Shown here in pieces: positions 23,425 through 39,302 of a stretch of DNA of 39,783 nt. Position 1 is the stretch's first letter. Each line of letters opens with the position of its first letter. A program made the position numbers and the translations under genes. The stretch covers positions 1-39,783 of the IMG/VR virus record IMGVR_UViG_3300031857_000489; one strand, written 5' to 3'. The notes beneath the pieces are model-generated. The model saw only the letters and a program-made list of their open reading frames with translations, did no database searches and had not been told where the DNA came from. The DNA is from a virus. Taxonomy: Duplodnaviria > Caudoviricetes.

Positions 23425-24902
23425 GCCACGACTCCAAAAGCCTTCCGAAGCTTCGCCATGCCGCTCTTGACCGGCTTGAGCCGTTCGCCGGCAGCCTGAA
23501 GAGCCTTGAGGACTTCATCCTCATCCATGTCGTCGACCGGGTCATTGACGACCTGCTCGTCCATCGGCATGTCGTCCACGGGCGGCGGAGGCGCCTGGTC
23601 GTCACCCATGCCGCCCGACTTCAGAAGTTCCATTGCGTCGTCGGCGTGGTAGGTTTTGAACGCCTCGGTCAGTTCGGCGACGATCTGCTCGGCCTGGCTG
23701 CGGAGTTTTTCGGTAACGGGCGACAGTTCGGGGTGAAAGCTGAGATTCGGCATCTCCGCCAAAAGGGCTTCAAAGTGCTTGATGACGTCGAGCAGCGATC
23801 TGACCTGGTCCTGCGCGGTAGCCGTGTCGTCCACCGACTCATCGTCGACCGGCACATCCTCATCGACCGGAACGTCTTCATCCGGGATTTCGTCGGCGGG
23901 AACCTCTTCGGATGGCTCCTCGACCGGCATGTCCATCTCGTCGGGCGTCTCGTCGACCGGCACGTCGTCGGTGTCCTCATCCTCGTCATCGCCATACGCT
24001 TTCCGAACGCCGAGCAGCGCCGCCACGCCCTTGCCCAGCGACTTGCGGCTGCCGGCTTGCAGTTCAAAATCGGGCGATCCGTAGATCAGCAATCCGGGGA
24101 GTTCGGTTTTCTCGACGAAAGACTTGCTGTATCCCTTCGCTCGCAAGAATCGCTCGGCCTGCGACTCGGTGTAGACTTCGGTGTCGAACTCGATTGCCGC
24201 GGTCTTGAGGCTGCTCATGTCGATCATCGCTCCCGGAGACCAAACTTTTTTCGGCGGCAGGATCAAGCTCGCCGTGCGCTTCATGGTTTGAGACTTGATA
24301 ATGCCGTTTGAAAGGGACATCCGCAACACATCTTCGTTCAGCGTGCCCGCGTTGACTGGCTGAAACGTCAACGACCATTCAGTAGGCCGCCATTCGGAGA
24401 AATGCAACCCCTTCGCCCGGCGATGCGACTGGACCGGCAGGAAGCCGATAGAAGCGCCGAGCAGGAATCCTCGGCGAACCAGTTCCCAGCACTCAGCCGA
24501 CAGGTTTTCGCCGTGGAACGGTTGCAGGTGGAAAAAGCACTTGGCGACAATCTTGTCGTCATGGACGTCGAAAAAGAACCCTTTTTGCGGATGCGAACTG
24601 CGCCCGACCGCGCCGAGCTTGGCGTCGTGCTCGTAGAGAACGACCGGGTTTCGCTTGTAATCGGCCAAGTGGGGCATACACCCATTTGGCTCGATGACGT
24701 CGCCTTCGCGGTCCTCTGTGCGGCTGACGACAACGAACGACGCGCAGACGTCTTGATCGGAGATGCTTCCGGGGACGGCTAGGGCCTGCGGCGAAGTGAA
24801 AGAGACCGCGCCGTCGCTGCCGAGGGGGGCGGCAAGAAGTGCGGCGGGACCGAAGTCCTTCCGATTGCGGCGGCGCAGCTCTTTGATGACGGCGGATGCC
24901 AT
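23421..24902 (-). CDS. HK97-family prohead protease with an acidic, scaffold-like C-terminal extension
   Basis: DREGDVI, NPVVLYEHD (His), GASIGF (Ser), EWSL..QPVN; D/E/P-rich tail. Confidence 0.88.
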   Translation of the reverse strand: MASAVIKELRRRNRKDFGPAALLAAPLGSDGAVSFTSPQALAVPGSISDQDVCASFVVVSRTEDREGDVIEPNGCMPHLADYKRNPVVLYEHDAKLGAVGRSSHPQKGFFFDVHDDKIVAKCFFHLQPFHGENLSAECWELVRRGFLLGASIGFLPVQSHRRAKGLHFSEWRPTEWSLTFQPVNAGTLNEDVLRMSLSNGIIKSQTMKRTASLILPPKKVWSPGAMIDMSSLKTAAIEFDTEVYTESQAERFLRAKGYSKSFVEKTELPGLLIYGSPDFELQAGSRKSLGKGVAALLGVRKAYGDDEDEDTDDVPVDETPDEMDMPVEEPSEEVPADEIPDEDVPVDEDVPVDDESVDDTATAQDQVRSLLDVIKHFEALLAEMPNLSFHPELSPVTEKLRSQAEQIVAELTEAFKTYHADDAMELLKSGGMGDDQAPPPPVDDMPMDEQVVNDPVDDMDEDEVLKALQAAGERLKPVKSGMAKLRKAFGVVA

Positions 24903-24944
24903 GGCAACGACGCTACCATTTTTGTGCCGCTGTTCAACTCGACT

Positions 24945-26678
24945 TCACGTCCTTCGCCCGAACGTCAGGCCGATGTCAACTCCCGTCGACGTCGACGCTG
25001 GCCCAAACGCCATAGTTTGCAAGACCGCCATTGCCCGATCGTCAATGTCCGCCGATGAAATCACCGACGTTGTCGTGCAGAAGCAGTTGCTCGAAACTAG
25101 TCCACCAGATACAATATACAGAGAACTTTGTGTCTGTATGTCGTATACGGGGATGACATGGCCGCCAGGGTCGAATTGGATGTCGACGATCTTGTTCGTC
25201 GTTATGAGGCCGGAACTAGCAACAACGAGTTGGCGAAGATTTTCGGCGTGTCGCGACAGGTCATTTACCGATGCCTCCGGGAGAGAGCAGTCCGCATTCG
25301 CGGCATCACGGAAACGATGGCTAGCGTCCTTTCCAAGCGATACGCGACGATGAGCAAAGAGGACCGCAAGCGATTCACGGCTGCGGCCAACGAAGCGGCC
25401 CGTGGCCGAAAGCACTCTATCGAAGAGCGCATCAAGCGTGCTGCGTCCAATGAGCGAACCAAGGCCAACCGCAGCACCCTGGAAGTCTGGCTCGGAGACG
25501 AATTGACCGCCGCGGGGATCGATTTCGTTTCGACCAAGGCCGTTGGCATGTACAACATCGATGTTGCCCTCACAGAAAGCCGCGTCGCCGTGGAGGTATT
25601 CGGGGGCAACTGGCACAACTCGCCGAAGCACTCCGCGAGATTCCGAGAACGAACCGACTACTTGATCGATTCGGGTTGGCTTCCGGTAATTATTTGGTCC
25701 GTCAAGGATAAGCCGCTCGGCGTCGGGGCACGCGATTATGTCATCTCCCTTCACCAGCGACGATGCAAAGGCGAACCCTTCGACGGTAAGGAACATGTGA
25801 TTTGGGGTACAGGTGAGGCTATCCCCGCTGGCCAATACGATCCGAACACGGGGGCCACGGTAAAACGCCTTGAAGGCACCGACCGCCCCAGAGACTTGTA
25901 TGGCCGTTTCTCCAGTTAAACAATGCGGATGAGCCGGCGGGTGGTAGATCATCTGATACGGCCCAGGCTTGCCGATCTTCGCGAACGCTTCGCCGATGCC
26001 TACTTCTTTTCCGTTGAGCCCGCGGCAGATGTCGCACGCATCCGACGACGCGAGCCACCGCAGGCCGCGAACGACGCGAGACGCCCGCGCCGCTTCCATC
26101 GCCCCGGCGTGAAAACCGCGACTCGCCTCCGTCTGAGCAATGCGGGCAGCCTTCGCCGGGTCGGCAAAAATCTGGAACAGACGCCGATTCAGGTCTCGCG
26201 TGGCATCGCCTGCCCCCACTCCCTCCGCGACAGCGTTTCTTGCCGCATTTGCTGCTTCCGTCGCGTGCATGGTCGCGGTCTGTAGCGTTGATTGAGCCAG
26301 GTCGAACGCCGCTCGGCGGATGGATTCGACGACCTCCGGCCGCGACAGGTCGAACGCCGCGTCCATGCCCTGAATGCCGAGCGAGATGTTTTTTCGGACC
26401 AGAGGCAATCGACCGCCCTTGGCGCGACTGATCGCCGCAAGGATGTCTCGTGCCCGATGCCGCATGCCGTCGCGATAGTAGTGCCAGATGACATCGACGA
26501 ACCCGGCAGCAAGGGCCGTCATGTGGGCGTTGAGATCGACGGGGCGCCACGCGTGAATTTGGCCCGCCGCGACCTGGAGAAGGGACGACAACGCCGGATG
26601 CAGGCCGCGGGCGAGAAAGTGGCCAGTCGGGAGTTGCTGGCTATGGCCGGGAACGGTGATGTATTTGGCGTTGGTCAT
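24945..26678 (-). CDS. MuF/SPP1 gp7-like head morphogenesis protein interrupted by an intein
   Basis: RIAQTE, W.ASSDACDIC..LNG, PPAHPH|CFC (HPxCxC motif restored after splicing). Confidence 0.88.
   Translation of the reverse strand: MTNAKYITVPGHSQQLPTGHFLARGLHPALSSLLQVAAGQIHAWRPVDLNAHMTALAAGFVDVIWHYYRDGMRHRARDILAAISRAKGGRLPLVRKNISLGIQGMDAAFDLSRPEVVESIRRAAFDLAQSTLQTATMHATEAANAARNAVAEGVGAGDATRDLNRRLFQIFADPAKAARIAQTEASRGFHAGAMEAARASRVVRGLRWLASSDACDICRGLNGKEVGIGEAFAKIGKPGPYQMIYHPPAHPHCLTGETAIQVSGAVGAFKAFYRGPRVRIVLASGDSLTCTPNHMFLTVEGFAFASSLVKGDDIIACPDAERLILDGPNNYRKPTRIDQVVGSFSESRGVLRRVVPVAPEYLHGDAAFCEGNIDVVHANGLGRNEIDPRGGQFVSEPDFQGAAVGLGSLIGRSTLDALFDRVLSATGRFVGRSRESLAVLFAHRRVSLGKDASHRFRDAANADCSLPEASVNDLSRHAENLRQLVVASSGLITTNKIVDIQFDPGGHVIPVYDIQTQSSLYIVSGGLVSSNCFCTTTSVISSADIDDRAMAVLQTMAFGPASTSTGVDIGLTFGRRT
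25087..25115 (+). promoter_or_regulatory. Putative sigma70-like promoter for the antisense endonuclease
   Basis: TTGCTC (25087-92), 17-nt spacer, TACAAT (25110-15) in an AT-rich patch; GGGGA at 25149-53 before the ATG at 25158. Confidence 0.6.
25158..25919 (+). CDS. HTH + NUMOD3-like + Vsr/DUF559-type endonuclease (putative homing endonuclease), encoded antisense within the intein
   Basis: YEAGTSNNELAKIFGVSRQVIYRCL (HTH); RGRKHSIEERIKRA (NUMOD3-like); YNIDVAL...VAVEVFGGNWH...RTDYLIDSGWLPVIIW (Vsr/DUF559-like). Confidence 0.8.
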   Translation: MAARVELDVDDLVRRYEAGTSNNELAKIFGVSRQVIYRCLRERAVRIRGITETMASVLSKRYATMSKEDRKRFTAAANEAARGRKHSIEERIKRAASNERTKANRSTLEVWLGDELTAAGIDFVSTKAVGMYNIDVALTESRVAVEVFGGNWHNSPKHSARFRERTDYLIDSGWLPVIIWSVKDKPLGVGARDYVISLHQRRCKGEPFDGKEHVIWGTGEAIPAGQYDPNTGATVKRLEGTDRPRDLYGRFSS

Positions 26679-28840
26679 GTGTCCGATTGCGGCTTGGGTT
26701 GCGCCGGCTTGAACATGAAATACATATTATCATCCCCGTCCTTAACGGTGACGCCGTGCGGATCGTCCATCAGGTGAGGCTCATTGATGACCTGGAGTTG
26801 AATCTGGCCGCTGTCTCGCATTTTGCGGACGAGTTTTTGGAATCGCTCGGGCGTGAATCCGGGGCGAGGGTTACCGTTGTCGTCGAACCGCACCTGGTCG
26901 TAGAGCCGAGGCAGCGGAATCAACCCGTTGTCGTACTCGCGGAGATAGCCGAGATCCTTGTAGGCGACCCCGATCGCGTCCATGTCGGTGTTGTCGCTTG
27001 CCGACGATTGCGGCTTGGCTTGCGGCTTGGGTTGCGTCGCCGGTTTCGCTGGCCGGCTTCCGAACGTGCCGAGTTTTGCTGGCGCCGCTGGCCGCATCTG
27101 GTCCTCTTGCGACCGGGCCGTCTTCGCGGGAGCCGGCTTGGGCGGCGGCATCAAATGGTCGTTCTCGGCTGGGTAGCCGCCGTCACCGTCTCGGCGCCGC
27201 GAAAGGAATAGCTGAAGCACGCCATCTTCGACGATGCCGGCTTCACGCTCTTCGGGCTTCAACCCGCCCCGTCCCTCGGCTCCCGTCGTCGTGTACAGAC
27301 CGGATCGGCGGAGTTGATACAGGTGGCGGTCAAAATCCTCGCGCGAGATATTGGGCAACTCCTTCCGCAGATCCACCAGCGACACGAAGTTTGGCCGGCT
27401 GGACCTCGACTCGACCCGCTTCATCGCCCGCGCGAACTCGCCGCGGAATTCTTCGGCGGACAACGGCGGCGATGGCGATGGGCTGGGCGCTGGCTTCTCG
27501 GCAGGCGCGACCGCCGGCTCGGCAGTGGCCGCCAACTCCTGATGTCCGCGAATCTGCTCGACAATCTGCGCCTTCAACTTCGGATTCGCCCCCTTGATGC
27601 CGAGTTCGGTTTTCAGTTCCTTGAGTTGCGGAATCGTCATTTTCGACAGATGCCCGATAAGTTCCTGCGCTGTCGCCCTCGCCTGTTCCGAGTCGCTGGC
27701 CCTGGGGGTCTTGAGGATTGCCGTTGCCGCCTGCCGGGCTTGCTGCTGGCTGTCGGCACGCTTCGGCGCAGCCGGCTTCTTCGCCCCGGCTGCCTGTTGC
27801 TTCTGGGCCGACTGCGGCTTGGTTGTCGCCGCGCCGGCGTTCGGGTTGGCGATGCGGAAAGTTCGCCCGCCCTGCCGCTTGTAGAACCGCCCCGAAGTCT
27901 CCCACGTCTCGCCATCCTTGCGTGCCGTGGCCTTGACGACGTAAACGGCGAGCGACTTTCGCGACATCGGCGGGTCAGCTTCATCGTACCAGTGCCCCAG
28001 GATGTCGGCGATGAGATCGATCCTCTCTTGCTCGCCGCCGTCGTCCGGCTGTGCGGCGCGATCGCCGAGCGATTTGGCGACGAAACGAGTTGTCAAGGAA
28101 TCCTTGACAACTGCCGCACGGGCGTAGATCGGAGACGCCAGAAGTCCGCGGCGGATGGATTTCGGCGTCGGCAGGTCCAGTTTGTGCGTCTCGCCCTCGA
28201 CGACGGATCGCATGGTTTTCATCTTGTTCGACAGCAGCTTGTAGTTGTGCATGTCAACCTTCGTGTTCGAGAAGAGGTAACGAATCTTTGATCGGCTTTT
28301 GGTCGTCAATCGCAGCGTCCGGCCGGGAATCTGAAGGTTTTCAAGAGCCGTCCAGGGCGGCGTCATGACAATCGTCGACCGTGGCCGATCGCCTACCGTG
28401 TCGTCCAGGTTGATGCCGGTCGAGCCCGACGGGATTGTGGTGATGAACACGCGAGCCTTTCCGCTCTGGAACTGTTGCACCGCGTCTTTGTCGGCCGACG
28501 ATCCGCTGTGATATTCGACGACGTCGCTGATGCCGTTTTTGGCGAATTCCTGGCGCAGCAAGTCGACCACGCCCGCCTCGTCGTTGCCGCCAGGGTTGAC
28601 GCTCGACGTGAACAGGATCACCGAATGGCCGGCCTTGATGTCCTCGATCGCCTTCGCGACGGCGTGGGGAACCTTGTGCCGCTCTCGACGCAGGCGGGCC
28701 TGCATGATCGCCTGGGCGGCGTTTTTCGAGTCCCCGCCGGCGATGGATTCGAGTTCGGCTTTCGCCTCTTCGGGTAGGTCGACCGTCTCGACGCTGGCGT
28801 CTATGCGGCGGTAAAGCGGAGATTCCAAAAGCTCGCTCAT
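26675..28840 (-). CDS. Multidomain head-region protein (~721 aa): Strawberry-notch-like SF2 helicase C-domain, Rho-N/SAP-like helix pair, two wHTH-like modules
   Basis: Start at 28840 (ATGA overlap with portal); FQSGKARVFITTIPSGSTGINLDD...PPWTA...QIPGRTLR; LSKMTIPQLKELKTELGIKG. Confidence 0.75.
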   Translation of the reverse strand: MSELLESPLYRRIDASVETVDLPEEAKAELESIAGGDSKNAAQAIMQARLRRERHKVPHAVAKAIEDIKAGHSVILFTSSVNPGGNDEAGVVDLLRQEFAKNGISDVVEYHSGSSADKDAVQQFQSGKARVFITTIPSGSTGINLDDTVGDRPRSTIVMTPPWTALENLQIPGRTLRLTTKSRSKIRYLFSNTKVDMHNYKLLSNKMKTMRSVVEGETHKLDLPTPKSIRRGLLASPIYARAAVVKDSLTTRFVAKSLGDRAAQPDDGGEQERIDLIADILGHWYDEADPPMSRKSLAVYVVKATARKDGETWETSGRFYKRQGGRTFRIANPNAGAATTKPQSAQKQQAAGAKKPAAPKRADSQQQARQAATAILKTPRASDSEQARATAQELIGHLSKMTIPQLKELKTELGIKGANPKLKAQIVEQIRGHQELAATAEPAVAPAEKPAPSPSPSPPLSAEEFRGEFARAMKRVESRSSRPNFVSLVDLRKELPNISREDFDRHLYQLRRSGLYTTTGAEGRGGLKPEEREAGIVEDGVLQLFLSRRRDGDGGYPAENDHLMPPPKPAPAKTARSQEDQMRPAAPAKLGTFGSRPAKPATQPKPQAKPQSSASDNTDMDAIGVAYKDLGYLREYDNGLIPLPRLYDQVRFDDNGNPRPGFTPERFQKLVRKMRDSGQIQLQVINEPHLMDDPHGVTVKDGDDNMYFMFKPAQPKPQSDT

Positions 28841-30399
28841 TGCATCCCGCCTCCAAAAATGTCCGCGATATCGCCGGCGTCGCCGGTTTGCTCGCCGCCC
28901 ATTCCTCCGCCATCGCCCATTCCGCCGCCCATGCCACCGCCGCCCATCAGTTGCTGCATCTGGTCCATTGGCTGTTCCCCCGTCGCCCATCCAAGCGGCT
29001 GCGCCGACATCGGGTTCCCGACCGGATCGTCTCCACCGTGCTCCCACGGCTCGAAGCCCTCAGCCTGTCGCCACTCGTTCGGCGTGACGACGGAGTTTCG
29101 GTGCATCGTTTCGTATTTTCGCAGACGCATTTCCGGGTCGTTGGGAGTCGGATCGTCCCAGTAAATCACAAGGTCGTCGTTGTACCGTTTCGCCAGCTTT
29201 TCCGTCAGCACTTGGCCGGCTAGAGTCAATTTCGGCTTGAGGCACGATCCGTAAAAATTGGCTCGGCTCGCGTCGGCGTTTGCGTAGGTCGATTGTTCCA
29301 CCAGGCCGGCGATGGATTGCGGCACGCGATGAGCCGACATCAGAGAACCGCGGACCTGATCGGCTGACGCGGCGTAGTCCATTTCGACATTCGTTCGCGA
29401 AAACGGGACAACGCGAATGCCAGGCGACAGCACAACCACTTCGCCGGTGTTGCGCACGCCTTGGTACGCCTCCCGGAATCGAGATTTGACGCGGGCGATC
29501 TCCTCCTGGTCGGGGTTGGCAACGTCCTTGTCCATTTCCAGCGCCACGCCGGGGAATGCTCCGTTGGCGAACGTTTGGACGCGGCTGCGGTCGATGTTGT
29601 TGCTGACGTCGATCCATGCGCCGATTGCACCGACCGGAGAATAGCCGTCGATGATCGAGAACGGCGACGGATACGCAATCTTGATGATTTCCGATGCCGG
29701 CCGCCGCTCGATGCCGCCCGCGCCAGGGAACCAGCCTGCTCCGAACGCGCCCACAGCGTCGACCATGACACTGTTCGTCGGCCGAATTTCGTACTCGCCG
29801 ATTAGCTGGTCTTTGCCGGGGATTTCGTACACCCACTGCGACGGCAGAACCCAAAGCTGACTCGGCCGGTCATCGACGTTGATTTTCGCCGGCGGAGCCC
29901 ACATGTACGCCGCCCCGGTTAGTTCCAGGTACATCATGACCTTGTACCAGAAAGTCCAGGCGACATCCGGGCCGTTCGGGTTGAGCAGGATTCGGTAGAG
30001 CGGATGGTCCTGGCTGACCTGTTCGAGGGTGTCGTCGGACCTGATGTTGGTCAACGCTTTTCGCCGTGCGTTGGCCGTCAGAAAACGGCTCTGAAATTCG
30101 GCGTTGACATCTCGACGATCACGGCCGCTGGCGAGAGCCTTTCGGTAGGCTGATCGCACGTCGGCGGCTGCGTGGCGCTTGGCGACAATCGGCTGGAATC
30201 CGCCGACTTCCTCCGCGATGGCTTTGATCGCGACGTAATTCCAGCCGCGGAAATGATTGACCTGCTCGATTCGCTGCCATGAATTGTTGAGGGCGGCGGT
30301 CGTCGCGCCAGACCATGCCGGCATCACGTCGATAACGCGGTCGCGGCGAGCCTTGACGATGCCGCCAAGGAATCCGAAAAGGGATCGGGTCAGTTGCAC
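28837..30399 (-). CDS. Phage portal protein, HK97 family
   Basis: HPLYRILLNPN, LELTGAAY, GYSPV, F.NGAFPG, N.G.VVVL, TPNEWRQAEGFEP. Confidence 0.92.
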   Translation of the reverse strand: MQLTRSLFGFLGGIVKARRDRVIDVMPAWSGATTAALNNSWQRIEQVNHFRGWNYVAIKAIAEEVGGFQPIVAKRHAAADVRSAYRKALASGRDRRDVNAEFQSRFLTANARRKALTNIRSDDTLEQVSQDHPLYRILLNPNGPDVAWTFWYKVMMYLELTGAAYMWAPPAKINVDDRPSQLWVLPSQWVYEIPGKDQLIGEYEIRPTNSVMVDAVGAFGAGWFPGAGGIERRPASEIIKIAYPSPFSIIDGYSPVGAIGAWIDVSNNIDRSRVQTFANGAFPGVALEMDKDVANPDQEEIARVKSRFREAYQGVRNTGEVVVLSPGIRVVPFSRTNVEMDYAASADQVRGSLMSAHRVPQSIAGLVEQSTYANADASRANFYGSCLKPKLTLAGQVLTEKLAKRYNDDLVIYWDDPTPNDPEMRLRKYETMHRNSVVTPNEWRQAEGFEPWEHGGDDPVGNPMSAQPLGWATGEQPMDQMQQLMGGGGMGGGMGDGGGMGGEQTGDAGDIADIFGGGMQ

Positions 30400-35244: not shown

Positions 35245-35388
35245 TCACACCGCAACCTTCCTCTGCGGCAACGTCTGCGTCGTTTTCCGTTGCGCCTTCA
35301 AACATCGCCCGATAACGCGCCGCTCATCGTCGTCCGAGTGCATGAGTAGCGGCATCGTGCCGATGATCTGGAAATCGACGCTATACAT
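35245..35388 (-). pseudogene. 47-aa ORF, probable gene remnant (MYSVDFQIIGTMPLLMHSDD...)
   Basis: AAGGAG RBS; manual translation; sequence loses character after ~20 aa. Confidence 0.35.
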
Positions 35389-36547
35389 TTCGTTCTCCTT
35401 TTAGGGTTTGGTTTTCACTTCTCGCCCGAATCTCCTCCATCACCGCCCGCAGAAACACCGCCGCGACGTGCGGCACGATGGCATTGCCGTATCCACTCAA
35501 CCGCCCCACCCGATTCCGCCGCGCCTCGCGGATCATTCGCTTAGCGTCTTTTGGATCAACTCCCAACTTTCCCAGCCGGGCGATGAGCGGTCCCAGTTCT
35601 CGGGGAATCCCATGAGCCAACGGCTGAACGCCGCGTCCAACACGCCGCGTCTTTCCGTCGAGGCAGGGGACGAGGCGGTAGTCGCTCCAAGGACCGCATG
35701 ATTGAGCGTGATGTTTTTGGTTGTGAATCCTCCTGGGCTCGGATGCCGCTCCGCGTCGGTTTTTGTCGTGGCCGGCCACCCCGTCAGCGGTTCGTTCTTC
35801 CCCGGCCGCAGCCCCATTGCCGCTTCCACTGACCGGCTGTAGTCGCAGTTGCCGGCCCCCGGCGTCGCTGCCATGGGTGTTGCCCACCCCGCCATCGCCG
35901 CATCCGCCGGCAACGCTCCCCCGGCTTGGTTCGGGCCGGTTGTGTGAACAATCTGCCCCAGAGTGAGCCCGAACCCGTTGCCGTTCCCGGTTCTCTCTTT
36001 GCACTCTTTCCTTCGCGCTAACGTCTTGCCCGGGTCTTTGCACTCGAACTCGTTCGCCACCGGCGTAGGCCACCCAGAACAATCGCTGCCTGATGTGCGG
36101 CGCCCCGACGCTATGTGCGCCCAGATTGACCGCCCCGCAGGTGTAGCCTGCCGCTTCCAGGTCTGCCGATACTCCATCCCACCATTCAAGCCCGCCTCGG
36201 CCAGCAACCTGCTCACCGATGACGCAAGGCGGTCGGACGGCGTCGATGAGCCGGAAGAACTCGGGCCACAGGTGCCGTTCGTCTTCGACCCCCTTCCGCT
36301 TGCCGGCTGCCGAGAACGGTTGGCACGGGCAACTACCCGTCCAGACGGGCCATTCGTCGGGCCATCCGGCGAGTTCGAGGGCGAGTTCCCATCCTGCAAC
36401 GCCGGCGAAGAAGTGGCATCGTCGAAACCCGGCAACATCGGCTGGAGAAACATCCGTGATACTCCTGTCGTCCACAGTCGCGGACGGGTAAAGGTTCCGC
36501 AGCCAATCGGCGGCGAACGGGTCGTGTTCGTTGAAAAAGACGCTCAC
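35381..36547 (-). CDS. C5-cytosine DNA methyltransferase, alpha frame, copy 1
   Basis: GTG at 36547 (GTGA overlap); FFAGVAG (I), GSCPCQPFS (IV), GEQV (VI), GAPHIRQRLF (VIII), GYGNAIVP (X). Confidence 0.88.
   Translation of the reverse strand: MSVFFNEHDPFAADWLRNLYPSATVDDRSITDVSPADVAGFRRCHFFAGVAGWELALELAGWPDEWPVWTGSCPCQPFSAAGKRKGVEDERHLWPEFFRLIDAVRPPCVIGEQVAGRGGLEWWDGVSADLEAAGYTCGAVNLGAHSVGAPHIRQRLFWVAYAGGERVRVQRPGQDVSAKERVQRENRERQRVRAHSGADCSHNRPEPSRGSVAGGCGDGGVGNTHGSDAGGRQLRLQPVSGSGNGAAAGEERTADGVAGHDKNRRGAASEPRRIHNQKHHAQSCGPWSDYRLVPCLDGKTRRVGRGVQPLAHGIPRELGPLIARLGKLGVDPKDAKRMIREARRNRVGRLSGYGNAIVPHVAAVFLRAVMEEIRARSENQTLKGERNV
35533..36453 (-). CDS. Overprinted +1-frame MTase beta polypeptide, copy 1
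   Basis: GWPTP/GWATP/GWPATT modules and LDAAFSRWLMGFPENW (motif IX-like); conserved in copy 2. Confidence 0.7.
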   Translation of the reverse strand: MFLQPMLPGFDDATSSPALQDGNSPSNSPDGPTNGPSGRVVARANRSRQPASGRGSKTNGTCGPSSSGSSTPSDRLASSVSRLLAEAGLNGGMEYRQTWKRQATPAGRSIWAHIASGRRTSGSDCSGWPTPVANEFECKDPGKTLARRKECKERTGNGNGFGLTLGQIVHTTGPNQAGGALPADAAMAGWATPMAATPGAGNCDYSRSVEAAMGLRPGKNEPLTGWPATTKTDAERHPSPGGFTTKNITLNHAVLGATTASSPASTERRGVLDAAFSRWLMGFPENWDRSSPGWESWELIQKTLSE

Positions 36548-36822
36548 ACCTTCCCCCGCTTCGTCGCCGACGAAATCCGCGTCATCCCCAGCGCCGACCG
36601 CTTGATGATCTCCGCATGCCGACGCATTCGGTCGTTCTGCCGCGCCAACACGCGAATTCGGTGCAACAGCGTTTTGTTGGCCGCTTCGAGGCCGCGGACG
36701 ATCTCCGAAAGCGTGCGGCCTGATCCTGGACATGGTCCGTTGCCGTGGCCTGGCAGCTTGCCGGTTCGCGTCTGCCGCAGGTCGTCGCGCAGGCAGATCG
36801 GGCAGGTTGTTGTTGTTGTCAT
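36544..36822 (-). CDS. Small Zn-finger-like protein
   Basis: CPIC...H....CPGSG plus coiled coil; coupled on both sides. Confidence 0.6.
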   Translation of the reverse strand: MTTTTTCPICLRDDLRQTRTGKLPGHGNGPCPGSGRTLSEIVRGLEAANKTLLHRIRVLARQNDRMRRHAEIIKRSALGMTRISSATKRGKV

Positions 36823-37019
36823 TGGTCAACCGCCTTTCGCAACCGATCGCGGCATCGGCGGAAACTGCCCTCGTCGCCATCGCTGCTGAATACCCCGAAA
36901 CCCGCGAGGCCGTCCATGATTGACAGCACCGAAATGACCTCTCGTCGCAATTCGTCGAATGCATCGTCAATTTCCTTGCGGCAGCGGTCCCTCTCCTCTT
37001 GCTTCGCTTCGTTTGTCAT
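36819..37019 (-). CDS. Hypothetical protein (MTNEAKQEER...)
   Basis: ATG at 37019 overlaps the dcm-like stop; GGGAG-like RBS. Confidence 0.55.
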   Translation of the reverse strand: MTNEAKQEERDRCRKEIDDAFDELRREVISVLSIMDGLAGFGVFSSDGDEGSFRRCRDRLRKAVDQ

Positions 37020-38227
37020 TGTTCTTCCCCCAAATGCTTGTCGATCTTCTCGACTCGCTGTTTGAAAGTCTGTATGTTCAAGAGACGACACAGGTGCTTT
37101 CCGAAGACTTTCGCCAGCAGAGGGGGGACAGCGTTGCCGATCTGGCGAGCGATACTCACTCCATGGAATTGATAGCGATCCTGAAAGGACATGAGGCGGG
37201 CTGCTTCACGGTAGGAGAGACTTCGATCTTCAAGAGGATGGATGAACGGCCCTGACGCCACGTTGCGGAAATAGCATGTGATCGTGTACGCGGGCTTGTT
37301 TCTCGCAAGGCGGTGGTACAGCGTAGTGCAGTCCTGGCGGAGTTCCCCGGAGTTGATGCGTCTCATCTTCTTGAAGCGGTCGGGAAGATGTTCGGTCGGA
37401 ACGCTACGAAGTCCGAAACCCTCCTTGACAAAGGGGACGACTTTGCTTGCTTGTTCTGAAACCCCGTTCGCTTGATGCATGGTCAATTGTTTGCAATTGG
37501 AACGAACATACTTTTGATATGAGCACGACGGTGGATGCAGGTACTCCCAGCCATCACGGCGGAGTTCTCCCTTCATCAAGGGCAAATCGCCAATCGCTTC
37601 TTCCACTGTCACGTGCGGTTGAACGTCGAAAAGTCCCGCCTCACCGTGCGTCGGTTCCGGGAAGCTGATGGGCACACCGGTCCGCGTGGCAAGGAAGAAG
37701 ATTCGGCGTCGAAGCTGAGGCACTCCGTAGTCAGCGGCGACCATTACTTTCGCCTCGACCTTGTAACCGATCTCATCAAACGCCTGGTAGATAAGCCGTT
37801 TGAAATGCCCGCCGCGAAACGTCAGCAAGCCAGGGACGTTTTCCATCATCACCCATTTCGGCTGCACTTCACCGACCAGACGAACGAAGTGCTCGAAGAG
37901 GAAATTGCGAGGGTCGTCCTCTTTCCGCTTGCCGTGGGTGCTGTAGCCCTGGCAACTCGGTCCGCCCGTCAAGAGATCAAGCTCCTGACCACCGCATGCT
38001 TCAAGGATTTTTGAGGCAGGGAGGAGGGTGACGTCTTCGCAGAGCGTTTCCGTTTCGGGGTGATTTGCCTTATAGGTCTTTAGACTGTGCTCGTCAAAAT
38101 CGACGGCGAGAGGTGTGCGAAAACCAGCTTGTCGGAGACCTTCTGAAAGCCCTCCGGCTCCGCAGAACAAGTCCACACAGATCGGTTGAATCGCTTTTTT
38201 CAAATCCTTCATGGATTCAGGAATCAT
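37016..38227 (-). CDS. dcm: Conventional single-chain C5-cytosine DNA methyltransferase
   Basis: DLFCGAGG (I), GGPSCQGYS (IV), ENVPG (VI), YGVPQLRRRIF (VIII), REAARLMSF (IX), QIGNAVPP (X); the symbol is a family label only. Confidence 0.92.
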   Translation of the reverse strand: MIPESMKDLKKAIQPICVDLFCGAGGLSEGLRQAGFRTPLAVDFDEHSLKTYKANHPETETLCEDVTLLPASKILEACGGQELDLLTGGPSCQGYSTHGKRKEDDPRNFLFEHFVRLVGEVQPKWVMMENVPGLLTFRGGHFKRLIYQAFDEIGYKVEAKVMVAADYGVPQLRRRIFFLATRTGVPISFPEPTHGEAGLFDVQPHVTVEEAIGDLPLMKGELRRDGWEYLHPPSCSYQKYVRSNCKQLTMHQANGVSEQASKVVPFVKEGFGLRSVPTEHLPDRFKKMRRINSGELRQDCTTLYHRLARNKPAYTITCYFRNVASGPFIHPLEDRSLSYREAARLMSFQDRYQFHGVSIARQIGNAVPPLLAKVFGKHLCRLLNIQTFKQRVEKIDKHLGEEQ

Positions 38228-39204
38228 CTCCCAATTTCCTCCATCACCGCCCGCAGAAACACCGCCGCTAGCTGCGGCACGATGGCGTTGCCGTATCCCC
38301 TCAATCGACCGACGCGATTCCGCCGGGCGTCTCGGATGATCCGGCGAGCGTCTTTTGGATCAACTCCCAACTTTCCCAGCCGGGCGATGAGCGGTCCCAG
38401 TTCTCGGGGAATCCCATGAGCCAACGGCTGAACGCCGCGTCCAACACGCCGCGTCTTGCCGTCGAGGCAGGGGACGAGGCGGTAGTCGCTCCAAGGGCCA
38501 TTTCCGAAAGCGCCAACGCCGCATCCGCCGGCAACGCTCCCCCGGCTTGGTTCGGGCCGCCGTTGCTGCCGTCCGTCGCTCGGGGCGTGTTCCAGCCGGT
38601 TGTGTGAACAATCTGTCCCAGAGTGAGCCCGAACCCGTTGCCGTTCCCGGTTCTCTCTTTGCACTCTTTCCTTCGCGCTAACGTCTTGTCGGGGTTGTTG
38701 CACTCGAACTCGTTCGCCGCCGGCGTCGGCCACCCAGAACAGCCTTTGTCTGATGTGCGGTGCCCCGACGCTGTGTGCGCCCAGATTGATCGCCCCGCAG
38801 GTGTAACCTGCCGCTTCCAGGTCTGCCGATACTCCATCCCACCATTCAAGCCCGCCTCGGCCAGCAACCTGCTCACCGATGACGCAAGGCGGTCGGACAG
38901 CGTTGATGAGACGGAAGAACTCGGGCCACAGATGCCGCTCGTCTTCGACCCCTTGCCGTTTGCCGGCTGCCGAGAAGGGCTGACAGGGACAAGATCCCGA
39001 CCAGATCGGCCAATCGCCCGGCCATCCGGCGAGCTGCAAGGCAAGCTCCCATCCCGCAACGCCGGCGAAGAAATGGGCTCGTCGAAAATCTCGAACATCG
39101 GCTGCTTGAACATCCGTGATACTCCGCGTGTCCACCGTCGCGTCGGGGTACAGGTTGTGAATCCACTCGGCGGCGAAGGGCTCGATTTCGTTCATGTAGG
39201 TCAT
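38224..39204 (-). CDS. C5-cytosine DNA methyltransferase, alpha frame, copy 2 (start 39204 or 39255)
   Basis: Same motifs as copy 1: FFAGVAG, GSCPCQPFS, GEQV, GAPHIRQRLF, GYGNAIVPQ. Confidence 0.88.
   Translation of the reverse strand: MTYMNEIEPFAAEWIHNLYPDATVDTRSITDVQAADVRDFRRAHFFAGVAGWELALQLAGWPGDWPIWSGSCPCQPFSAAGKRQGVEDERHLWPEFFRLINAVRPPCVIGEQVAGRGGLEWWDGVSADLEAAGYTCGAINLGAHSVGAPHIRQRLFWVADAGGERVRVQQPRQDVSAKERVQRENRERQRVRAHSGTDCSHNRLEHAPSDGRQQRRPEPSRGSVAGGCGVGAFGNGPWSDYRLVPCLDGKTRRVGRGVQPLAHGIPRELGPLIARLGKLGVDPKDARRIIRDARRNRVGRLRGYGNAIVPQLAAVFLRAVMEEIGR
38301..39113 (-). CDS. Overprinted +1-frame MTase beta polypeptide, copy 2
   Basis: GWPTP/GWNTP modules and SRWLMGFPENW; ATG at the same position as in copy 1. 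Confidence 0.7.
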   Translation of the reverse strand: MFKQPMFEIFDEPISSPALRDGSLPCSSPDGRAIGRSGRDLVPVSPSRQPANGKGSKTSGICGPSSSVSSTLSDRLASSVSRLLAEAGLNGGMEYRQTWKRQVTPAGRSIWAHTASGHRTSDKGCSGWPTPAANEFECNNPDKTLARRKECKERTGNGNGFGLTLGQIVHTTGWNTPRATDGSNGGPNQAGGALPADAALALSEMALGATTASSPASTARRGVLDAAFSRWLMGFPENWDRSSPGWESWELIQKTLAGSSETPGGIASVD

Positions 39205-39302
39205 TCCGCCCGCCTCTCGATCGACGTCGTCGTGATCGATTACTTCCTTGCGCATTCGATTCCTCCCGCAAACCGCACTCGTCTCCACACCCGCCGCCGA
39301 TA

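Follow-up and report, generated by a model that had tools for sequence, protein, structure and literature searches.

A class 1-type intein in a phage MuF gene with a putative Vsr-like homing endonuclease encoded on its opposite strand

Full inteins with an anti-sense VSR-like endonuclease have been described in actinobacteriophages by Gosselin, Arsenault and Gogarten (bioRxiv 10.1101/2025.01.02.630785), who list minor capsid proteins among those that house non-canonical inteins, find 1CW0 and 3R3P as structural matches of the nuclease, and suggest invasion by a free-standing endonuclease as its origin. Here we analyze an element in the MuF head morphogenesis gene of a Caudoviricetes phage (IMG/VR record IMGVR_UViG_3300031857_000489), the whole 39,783-nucleotide stretch of which is referred to below as the window. 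The window element has the published layout, that of an antisense Vsr-like intein, and the architecture, which the initial annotation of this DNA had put forward as possibly new, was thus already on record in that preprint; the value of the element therefore lies in its detail and reach. Our reading, held with good confidence, is that the intein likely splices from MuF, and that the antisense gene likely encodes a homing endonuclease cutting intein-free MuF alleles, the element then being copied by repair.

Several other systems lie close to this one. I-Bth0305I and the EDxHD homing endonucleases (PMC3239194; PMC2677866) combine, like the window protein, an N-terminal DNA-binding arm with a Vsr-like catalytic domain, and mutation of D222 abolishes cleavage by I-Bth0305I (PMC3239194); the genes of the EDxHD enzymes are carried by a group I intron or lie between the halves of a split intein, whereas ours lies antisense in a contiguous intein. 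Endonucleases in a separate frame are also found in the anti-sense LAGLIDADG inteins of the Gordonia phage Lennon group, which occupy the same MuF site (HEVIN|C), and in a cyanobacterial dnaX intein, where the out-of-frame endonuclease uses the +2 frame; both carry a nuclease different from the present one, and frame-specific selection is reported to keep them (bioRxiv 10.64898/2026.09.14.751524). Ward et al. 2004 (PMC517821) mention a MuF intein in which no endonuclease is recognizable. With class 1 inteins that carry an in-frame LAGLIDADG endonuclease (e.g. PI-PfuI and TliVMA, both fold matches of our sense model) the element has the Hint splicing domain and motifs in common, but its nuclease lies outside the spliced polypeptide and its N-terminal half is about 30 residues shorter.

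The MuF open reading frame (ORF) has 577 amino acids (aa), intein counted in, and is one of the head-module genes (portal ... MuF, protease, major capsid). The positions first given for MuF, the intein and the antisense ORF all hold, and the features on which the argument rests are as follows.

26678-24945, minus strand: MuF (phage Mu gpF / SPP1 gp7-like) head morphogenesis gene (Pfam Phage_Mu_F, E 1.4e-8; PHROG neighbours)
25922-25086, minus strand: class 1-type intein of 279 aa, with Cys1, T39-x-x-H42, S278-N279 and Cys+1, inserted at HPH|C
25158-25919, plus strand: antisense ORF of 253 aa, putative homing endonuclease; its ATG lies opposite intein His255 (CAT) and its TAA opposite Leu2 (TTA)
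25179-25283, plus strand: helix-turn-helix (HTH) domain, antisense residues 8-42 (Pfam HTH_7, E 1.2e-7, above cut-off)
25467-25832, plus strand: Vsr-like PD-(D/E)xK nuclease domain, antisense residues 104-225, with E109, D135, E146, H153 and R165
25087-25115, plus strand: candidate promoter, TTGCTC (25087-92), 17 nt, TACAAT (25110-15); a weak shifted variant scoring 8/12
25149-25153, plus strand: candidate ribosome-binding site (RBS), GGGGA, 4 nt upstream of the ATG; 3/5 match

On the sense strand, the intein runs CLTGET...VSSN between the exteins HPPAHPH and CFCT and carries the class 1 motifs (C1, T39-H42, N279, C+1), with Ser instead of His before the terminal Asn. An AlphaFold2 model built on a 37-sequence alignment reached a pLDDT score (predicted local distance difference test) of ~90 at residues 1-70 and 231-279, and matched Hint domains with Z 12.2 (root-mean-square deviation 1.3 over 104 aligned residues; Foldseek E 1.3e-5). 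From fold and motifs, the sense product is predicted to be a class 1 intein that splices itself out and restores MuF.

The codon boundaries of the antisense ORF coincide with those of the intein (codon against codon, register 0), and its stop lies opposite the second intein codon, TTA, which, as had been remarked, is rare (found once in 6606 codons counted over 13 long ORFs of the window). An HTH and a Vsr/DUF559-type nuclease had been proposed for its product, and both are borne out, as are the folds expected for the two strands. Beyond HTH_7, Pfam gave MTES_1575 below its cut-off (E 5.8e-7) and weak matches to Vsr and DUF559. The antisense model (14 sequences, mean pLDDT 80) comprises an HTH and a helical arm besides the nuclease domain, which matches Vsr 1cw0 (Z 10.7), 3hrl (Z 10.2) and I-Bth0305I 3r3p (Z 9.7); 3r3p and Vsr are also the top Foldseek ranks. 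The protein alone gave nothing useful in a phmmer search of the PDB, and its profile found 3hrl and 3r3p there. E109, D135, E146 and H153 align to 3r3p, and the core is kept in nearly all of 84 divergent homologs (E109 82/84, D135 84/84, E146 81/84, H153 81/84, R165 84/84). The HTH is of resolvase type, in contrast to I-Bth0305I, and no NUMOD was clearly detected: the NUMOD3-like segment named in the initial annotation found no support, as neither the whole protein nor residues 55-121 matched a Pfam family of that kind, the latter matching no family at all, and the search for NUMOD repeats returned NUMOD1 alone, at E 0.1 and overlapping the HTH.

Selection acts on both strands of the element. 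From 191 parsed inteins (121 unique) we drew 20 disjoint pairs, 12 of them with at least 75% DNA identity, in which the ratio of nonsynonymous to synonymous differences (pN/pS) was 0.23-0.34 in the antisense and 0.66-0.95 in the sense frame over codons 71-235, so that selection in the middle of the intein follows the antisense frame, as had been predicted. Over codons 3-70 the ratio was low in both frames (sense 0.39, antisense 0.45-0.62), and both are therefore constrained along the stretch shared by the nuclease tail and blocks A and B, while upstream of the antisense ATG (codons 256-278) the sense frame stood at 0.15 against 2.2 for the antisense frame. Selection thus keeps the antisense frame in codons 71-235, and both frames in codons 3-70. 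Identity to relatives is likewise higher in the antisense frame (33-37%) than in the sense frame (23-26%).

The family is large. A tblastn search with the antisense protein returned 118 phage records, and profile searches gave 1360 clusters at E<=1e-30, whether intein-borne or not, the best 80 of 587 viral stretches, and 35 genome loci from many phyla; relatives also occur in Proteobacteria phages, and MuF inteins of Gordonia, Mycobacterium and Rhodococcus phages match the window at 27-40%. In a set of 97 loci (18 named phages, 78 viral contigs and the window) and in the 35 genome loci, three of which were read by eye, the ORF lies opposite the intein-bearing host frame in register 0 at every locus (97/97 and 35/35). 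Parsing succeeded for 93/97 loci (three had no parsable C end, one no Cys1), which fall into 73 clusters. No antisense stop occurs past intein codon 30 in any of the 84 divergent homologs, over a total of 1786 Leu and 1886 Ser codons in the sense frame, so an ORF frequently broken in homologs, the outcome that would have spoken against the initial annotation, was not seen. The stop itself varies more than had been supposed: codon 2 is its commonest position, at only 24/84, followed by codon 3 in 10, other sites up to codon 30 in 41, and sites beyond Cys1 in the extein in 9. Retrieval by the sense N-terminal region added 78 loci, 68 of them parsed and 57 non-redundant, and the antisense ORF is intact in 57/57, as it is in three phages taken from the sense-frame search list; the ten unparsed loci end with the contig (5), were missed by the pattern (4), or have a sense stop after block B (1, L239). 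Free-standing nuclease copies were absent from the parsed loci of the 97-locus, 35-locus and sense-retrieved sets; the 80 metagenome loci only passed through the intein-finding script. Relatives of the protein measure between ~200 and 446 aa and contain 1-5 matched stretches, and the lengths of parsed inteins peak near 273 and 320 aa, consistent with a number of HTH repeats that varies and that the sense frame would carry as an insert.

A homing pattern is clearest in Jerseyvirus. The intein-bearing gene of phage PK2 is fully covered by 67/493 matching phage records, most of the others listed align in two pieces, and three fetched Jerseyvirus records are clean empty alleles (HPN|CRS). The inteins of phi135 and dunkel are 100% identical in exteins of 76.7% identity, and PK2 and the empty f18SE share 90.7% extein identity. 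Identical inteins in divergent exteins, together with empty alleles, are the pattern that homing gives, and with the selection described above this upholds the idea of a mobile element coded on both strands. The Jerseyvirus nucleases (L008 and others) have no H153 equivalent (GGGWAC), yet it is their inteins that show this pattern best.

A promoter, RBS, ORF and stop had been proposed to fit entirely within the intein, and in the family this holds in a clearer form than in the window copy, except that 9/84 ORFs run past Cys1. On the reverse strand, x-Ser-Ser codons read as TTGACA and, 17 nt further, Ser-Leu-Tyr codons as TATAAT, Asp-Leu-Gln codons as GGAGG, and the His codon directly before VYDL as ATG. 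Across the 73 clusters the best promoter site averages 9.8/12, against 6.5 when codons are resampled with amino acids fixed; 38/73 score at least 11, GGAGG is perfect in 28/73, and the start-site His is CAT rather than CAC in 64 : 6 cases, compared with 201 : 227 in exteins. Leu at intein codon 2 is TTA or CTA in 25/32, against 18% in exteins. The expected conservation of the -35 and -10 elements applies to part of the family: TTGACA-17/18-TATAAT is perfect in 19/73 inteins and 40 have their site at one fixed position, while 37/84 homologs fall outside all three promoter classes. Of 21 inteins that end in His-Asn, 8 use an alternative, TG-n-TATAAT, lying over the final codons. Since the solved KlbA intein also has a His before VYDL, the start His of the family was probably co-opted as a reverse-strand ATG. 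These codons of blocks F and G are observed to spell a sigma70-type promoter, an RBS and an ATG, and we take them to be candidate start signals from their sequence. A conserved folded leader was rejected for the family (mean z 0.18, 0/82 below -2), and the window leader is no more stable than its shuffles.

Sense-strand constraint was also detected within the nuclease core, in the part of the intein that had been dismissed as filler:

25797-25808, minus strand: block B, TPNH, whose His is residue 42, ~30 residues closer to Cys1 than in solved inteins
25548-25697, minus strand: sense residues 76-125, over the nuclease core, predicted to be partly folded (strand-helix-strand-strand; pLDDT 78-86 at residues 81-120)
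25581-25592, minus strand: sense H-G-D-(G/A) motif (HGD), residues 111-114, opposite antisense 142-145 (RVAV), just before the catalytic E146

The block B His falls at residues 41-44 in 84/84 homologs, profile position 25 aligns to residue 56 of the Mtu RecA intein, and model residues 1-67 span Npu DnaE-N 1-99. With the antisense residue fixed, H111 is present in 93% against 20% expected, G112 in 98 against 36 and D113 in 95 against 40 (84 homologs; z 11-17); T39, N41 and H42 of block B gave z values of 14-16, all of these values being inflated by shared ancestry, and no column exceeded 5 in codons 131-160 and 201-235. Because third bases of the HGD codons vary, and H is replaced by Y and D by E, the pattern points to constraint at the protein level. 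The pLDDT of residues 81-120 may borrow signal from the antisense protein. In the Lennon MuF intein, a single control with an antisense LAGLIDADG, the block B His is residue 66 and the HGD is absent. Sequence comparison gave no support to a displaced Hint segment: hhalign of residues 74-132 against the intein's own halves gave a probability <1%, and PDB and Pfam held no intein match.

One reading of this segment, which we offer tentatively as a possibility, is that of a rearranged intein with inseparable genes, in which sense residues 76-125 with the HGD would replace, out of order, the ~30 residues missing between blocks A and B, so that the same codons would build part of the splicing fold and the active-site strands of the nuclease, and the splice-junction codons (Ser-Ser-Asn for His-Asn) would form the sigma70 promoter. 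If true, it would account for the nuclease being intact in every fully parsed copy and for the absence of mini-intein forms among those retrieved, and, should the HGD segment belong to the splicing fold, this would be a naturally rearranged Hint domain.

Compared with the inteins of Gosselin et al., the window shares layout and host class (minor capsid, IPR006528), 1CW0 as best fold (Z 10.6 theirs, 10.7 here), a helical stretch before the nuclease, and likeness to I-Bth0305I; the window protein also matches Gordonia phage homologs, and their REQ3 minor capsid intein has the same length, 225 aa, as our REQ3 locus (L021). Their account is confined to actinophages, whereas the family here reaches Proteobacteria phages and many phyla. 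The words 'promoter' and 'express' do not occur in their main text, to which the supplements may add, and that text gives no account of start signals in F/G codons, the overlap with blocks A and B, the short N-terminal half of the Hint domain or the HGD. In the literature covered, which took in little of the subscription journals, the combination of intein, anti-sense, VSR-like and minor capsid was found only in this 2025 preprint, and the promoter and HGD points were not found.

As we envisage it, MuF would be translated with its intein, which then splices out, while the nuclease would be made from a separate reverse transcript starting in blocks F/G rather than released by splicing. The HTH and helical arm would bind the empty site, and the E109/D135/E146/H153 center would cut or nick intein-free MuF alleles of resident or co-infecting genomes near the HPx|C junction; with the intein-bearing genome as template, repair would then copy the element. 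A host-type promoter would permit expression of the nuclease apart from the late head operon. No RNA run was listed among the sequencing runs that carry the sequence.

Several results weigh against this reading. Foldseek gave the antisense model no match at E<=0.001 (best 2.9e-3), and the equivalent of D222 in I-Bth0305I (His+9) is F162 in the window protein, in a column where F (40), L (11), Y (10) and H (10) prevail among 84 homologs and the seven commonest residues (78/84) are all non-acidic; because of this position, the nuclease is Vsr-like by its residues and not a strict EDxHD member. Most homologs were retrieved by the antisense protein, which biases them to intact ORFs, and the sense-retrieved set comprises largely the same contigs. 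Many homologs lie outside the promoter classes, and the window promoter is no better than synonymous resampling (p=0.40). Between the window and L148, its only close relative with DNA, the frames are not separated in codons 71-150 (0.52 vs 0.54). The search for an empty allele of the window's own MuF gave only two identical intein-bearing contigs, and ordinary recombination among mosaic phages could be an alternative or added mover of the intein.

Some of these points bear on whether the window copy is active at all. It may be that the family homes while this copy is nearly silent, its ORF persisting from recent ancestry or low read-through, which we consider rather doubtful; the argument is that an extra block G codon broke the promoter and that D-I-Q, in place of the D-L-Q that spells GGAGG, removed the RBS. 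The family -35 and -10 positions here read TCGAAA (25091-96) and TACAGA (25117-22), both degenerate and 20 nt apart, and a consensus scan of 24700-26800 returned 0 sites. Of the promoter and RBS first proposed, the hexamers and the GGGGA are present where they were placed, but both signals are degenerate. On the other hand, the closest relative, L148 (nuclease 56% identical), has TATAAT at the window's shifted site, giving that site some support, L018 and L064 share the shifted register, and the window ORF is unbroken and retains every core residue. The promoter was scored against a sigma70-type consensus, and the sigma preferences of the window phage's host may differ. By sequence the window is an outlier, its promoter and RBS falling short of what is usual in the family, and expression of its nuclease may for that reason be low.

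The antisense product might also owe its retention to a role in DNA binding or as a nickase-like factor instead of to homing, the intein spreading by ordinary recombination. This we find unlikely: the missing D222 equivalent, the loss of the H153 equivalent in Jerseyvirus copies and a fold that matches the repair enzyme Vsr as well as I-Bth0305I would suit it, but the conservation of E109, D135 and E146, the identical inteins in divergent exteins, and a gene that lies inside an intein at every locus examined argue for homing. Less probable still is a promoter retained chiefly for damping MuF and the head operon, or for setting their timing, to which the nuclease would be incidental. Consensus promoters do point into MuF in many relatives, and a scan of the plus strand from the antisense stop to 26800 gave no terminator-like site; phages do without such a promoter, however, because empty alleles exist in close relatives, and selection acts on the RBS, the ATG and the protein sequence alike. 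That the ORF arose by chance opposite a GC-rich coding strand has almost no probability left, even though long antisense ORFs are frequent in the window (61% GC), as domain matches, a Vsr-like fold, higher antisense than sense identity, frame-specific selection and 84/84 homologs without an internal stop refute it. The reading of a spliced intein with an antisense homing endonuclease is thus the one we retain.

Individual relatives depart from the common form. In Virus Rctr197k (KX853510; L309:865-2217) the same intein type sits at HLPCVA|C in a dCMP deaminase (Pfam E 5e-11) annotated as head morphogenesis, again preceding the Cys of a Cys-rich motif, and is a host switch out of MuF. Escherichia phage KMB36 (L019) has its head-gene site at DSRTSTT|C, upstream of the usual HPx|C, and Mycobacterium phage Sejanus (L010) at KVWV|C. 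The 225-aa intein of Rhodococcus phage REQ3 starts with Ala, its antisense ORF has neither HTH nor the usual start, and it may be a decaying copy. At L050 the intein begins HPG|VAFGP without Cys1, and its antisense gene, promoter region and C end appear intact. PK2 (L008:1244-2053) is the only record among the fetched intein-bearing phage regions in which the antisense ORF is annotated, under the label hypothetical protein.

The 39.8-kb window is a phage record, 56% complete, with its main genes on the minus strand and PHROG matches to terminase, portal, MuF, protease, capsid and tail. Between portal and MuF lies a 790-aa ORF (26675-29047, minus strand) whose N-terminal helicase C-terminal-like region (Pfam E 7e-4; PHROG 62 E 7e-15) is followed by low-complexity sequence; its position is unusual, and it is possibly a remnant. 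Three consecutive DNA methyltransferase genes (35381-39288, minus strand) lie upstream of the terminase.

The element offers a possible route to the expression of an antisense endonuclease, in which the intein's own splice-junction codons spell the promoter, RBS and start codon, in a family much larger than reported. The family includes cultured phages, among them Gordonia terrae phages Vivi2 and Malisha and coliphage Snoke, the records of which mostly leave the nuclease gene without annotation, so that homing is testable in the laboratory. With ~250 codons read on both strands and measurable selection on each, these inteins are a natural model of overlapping-gene evolution.

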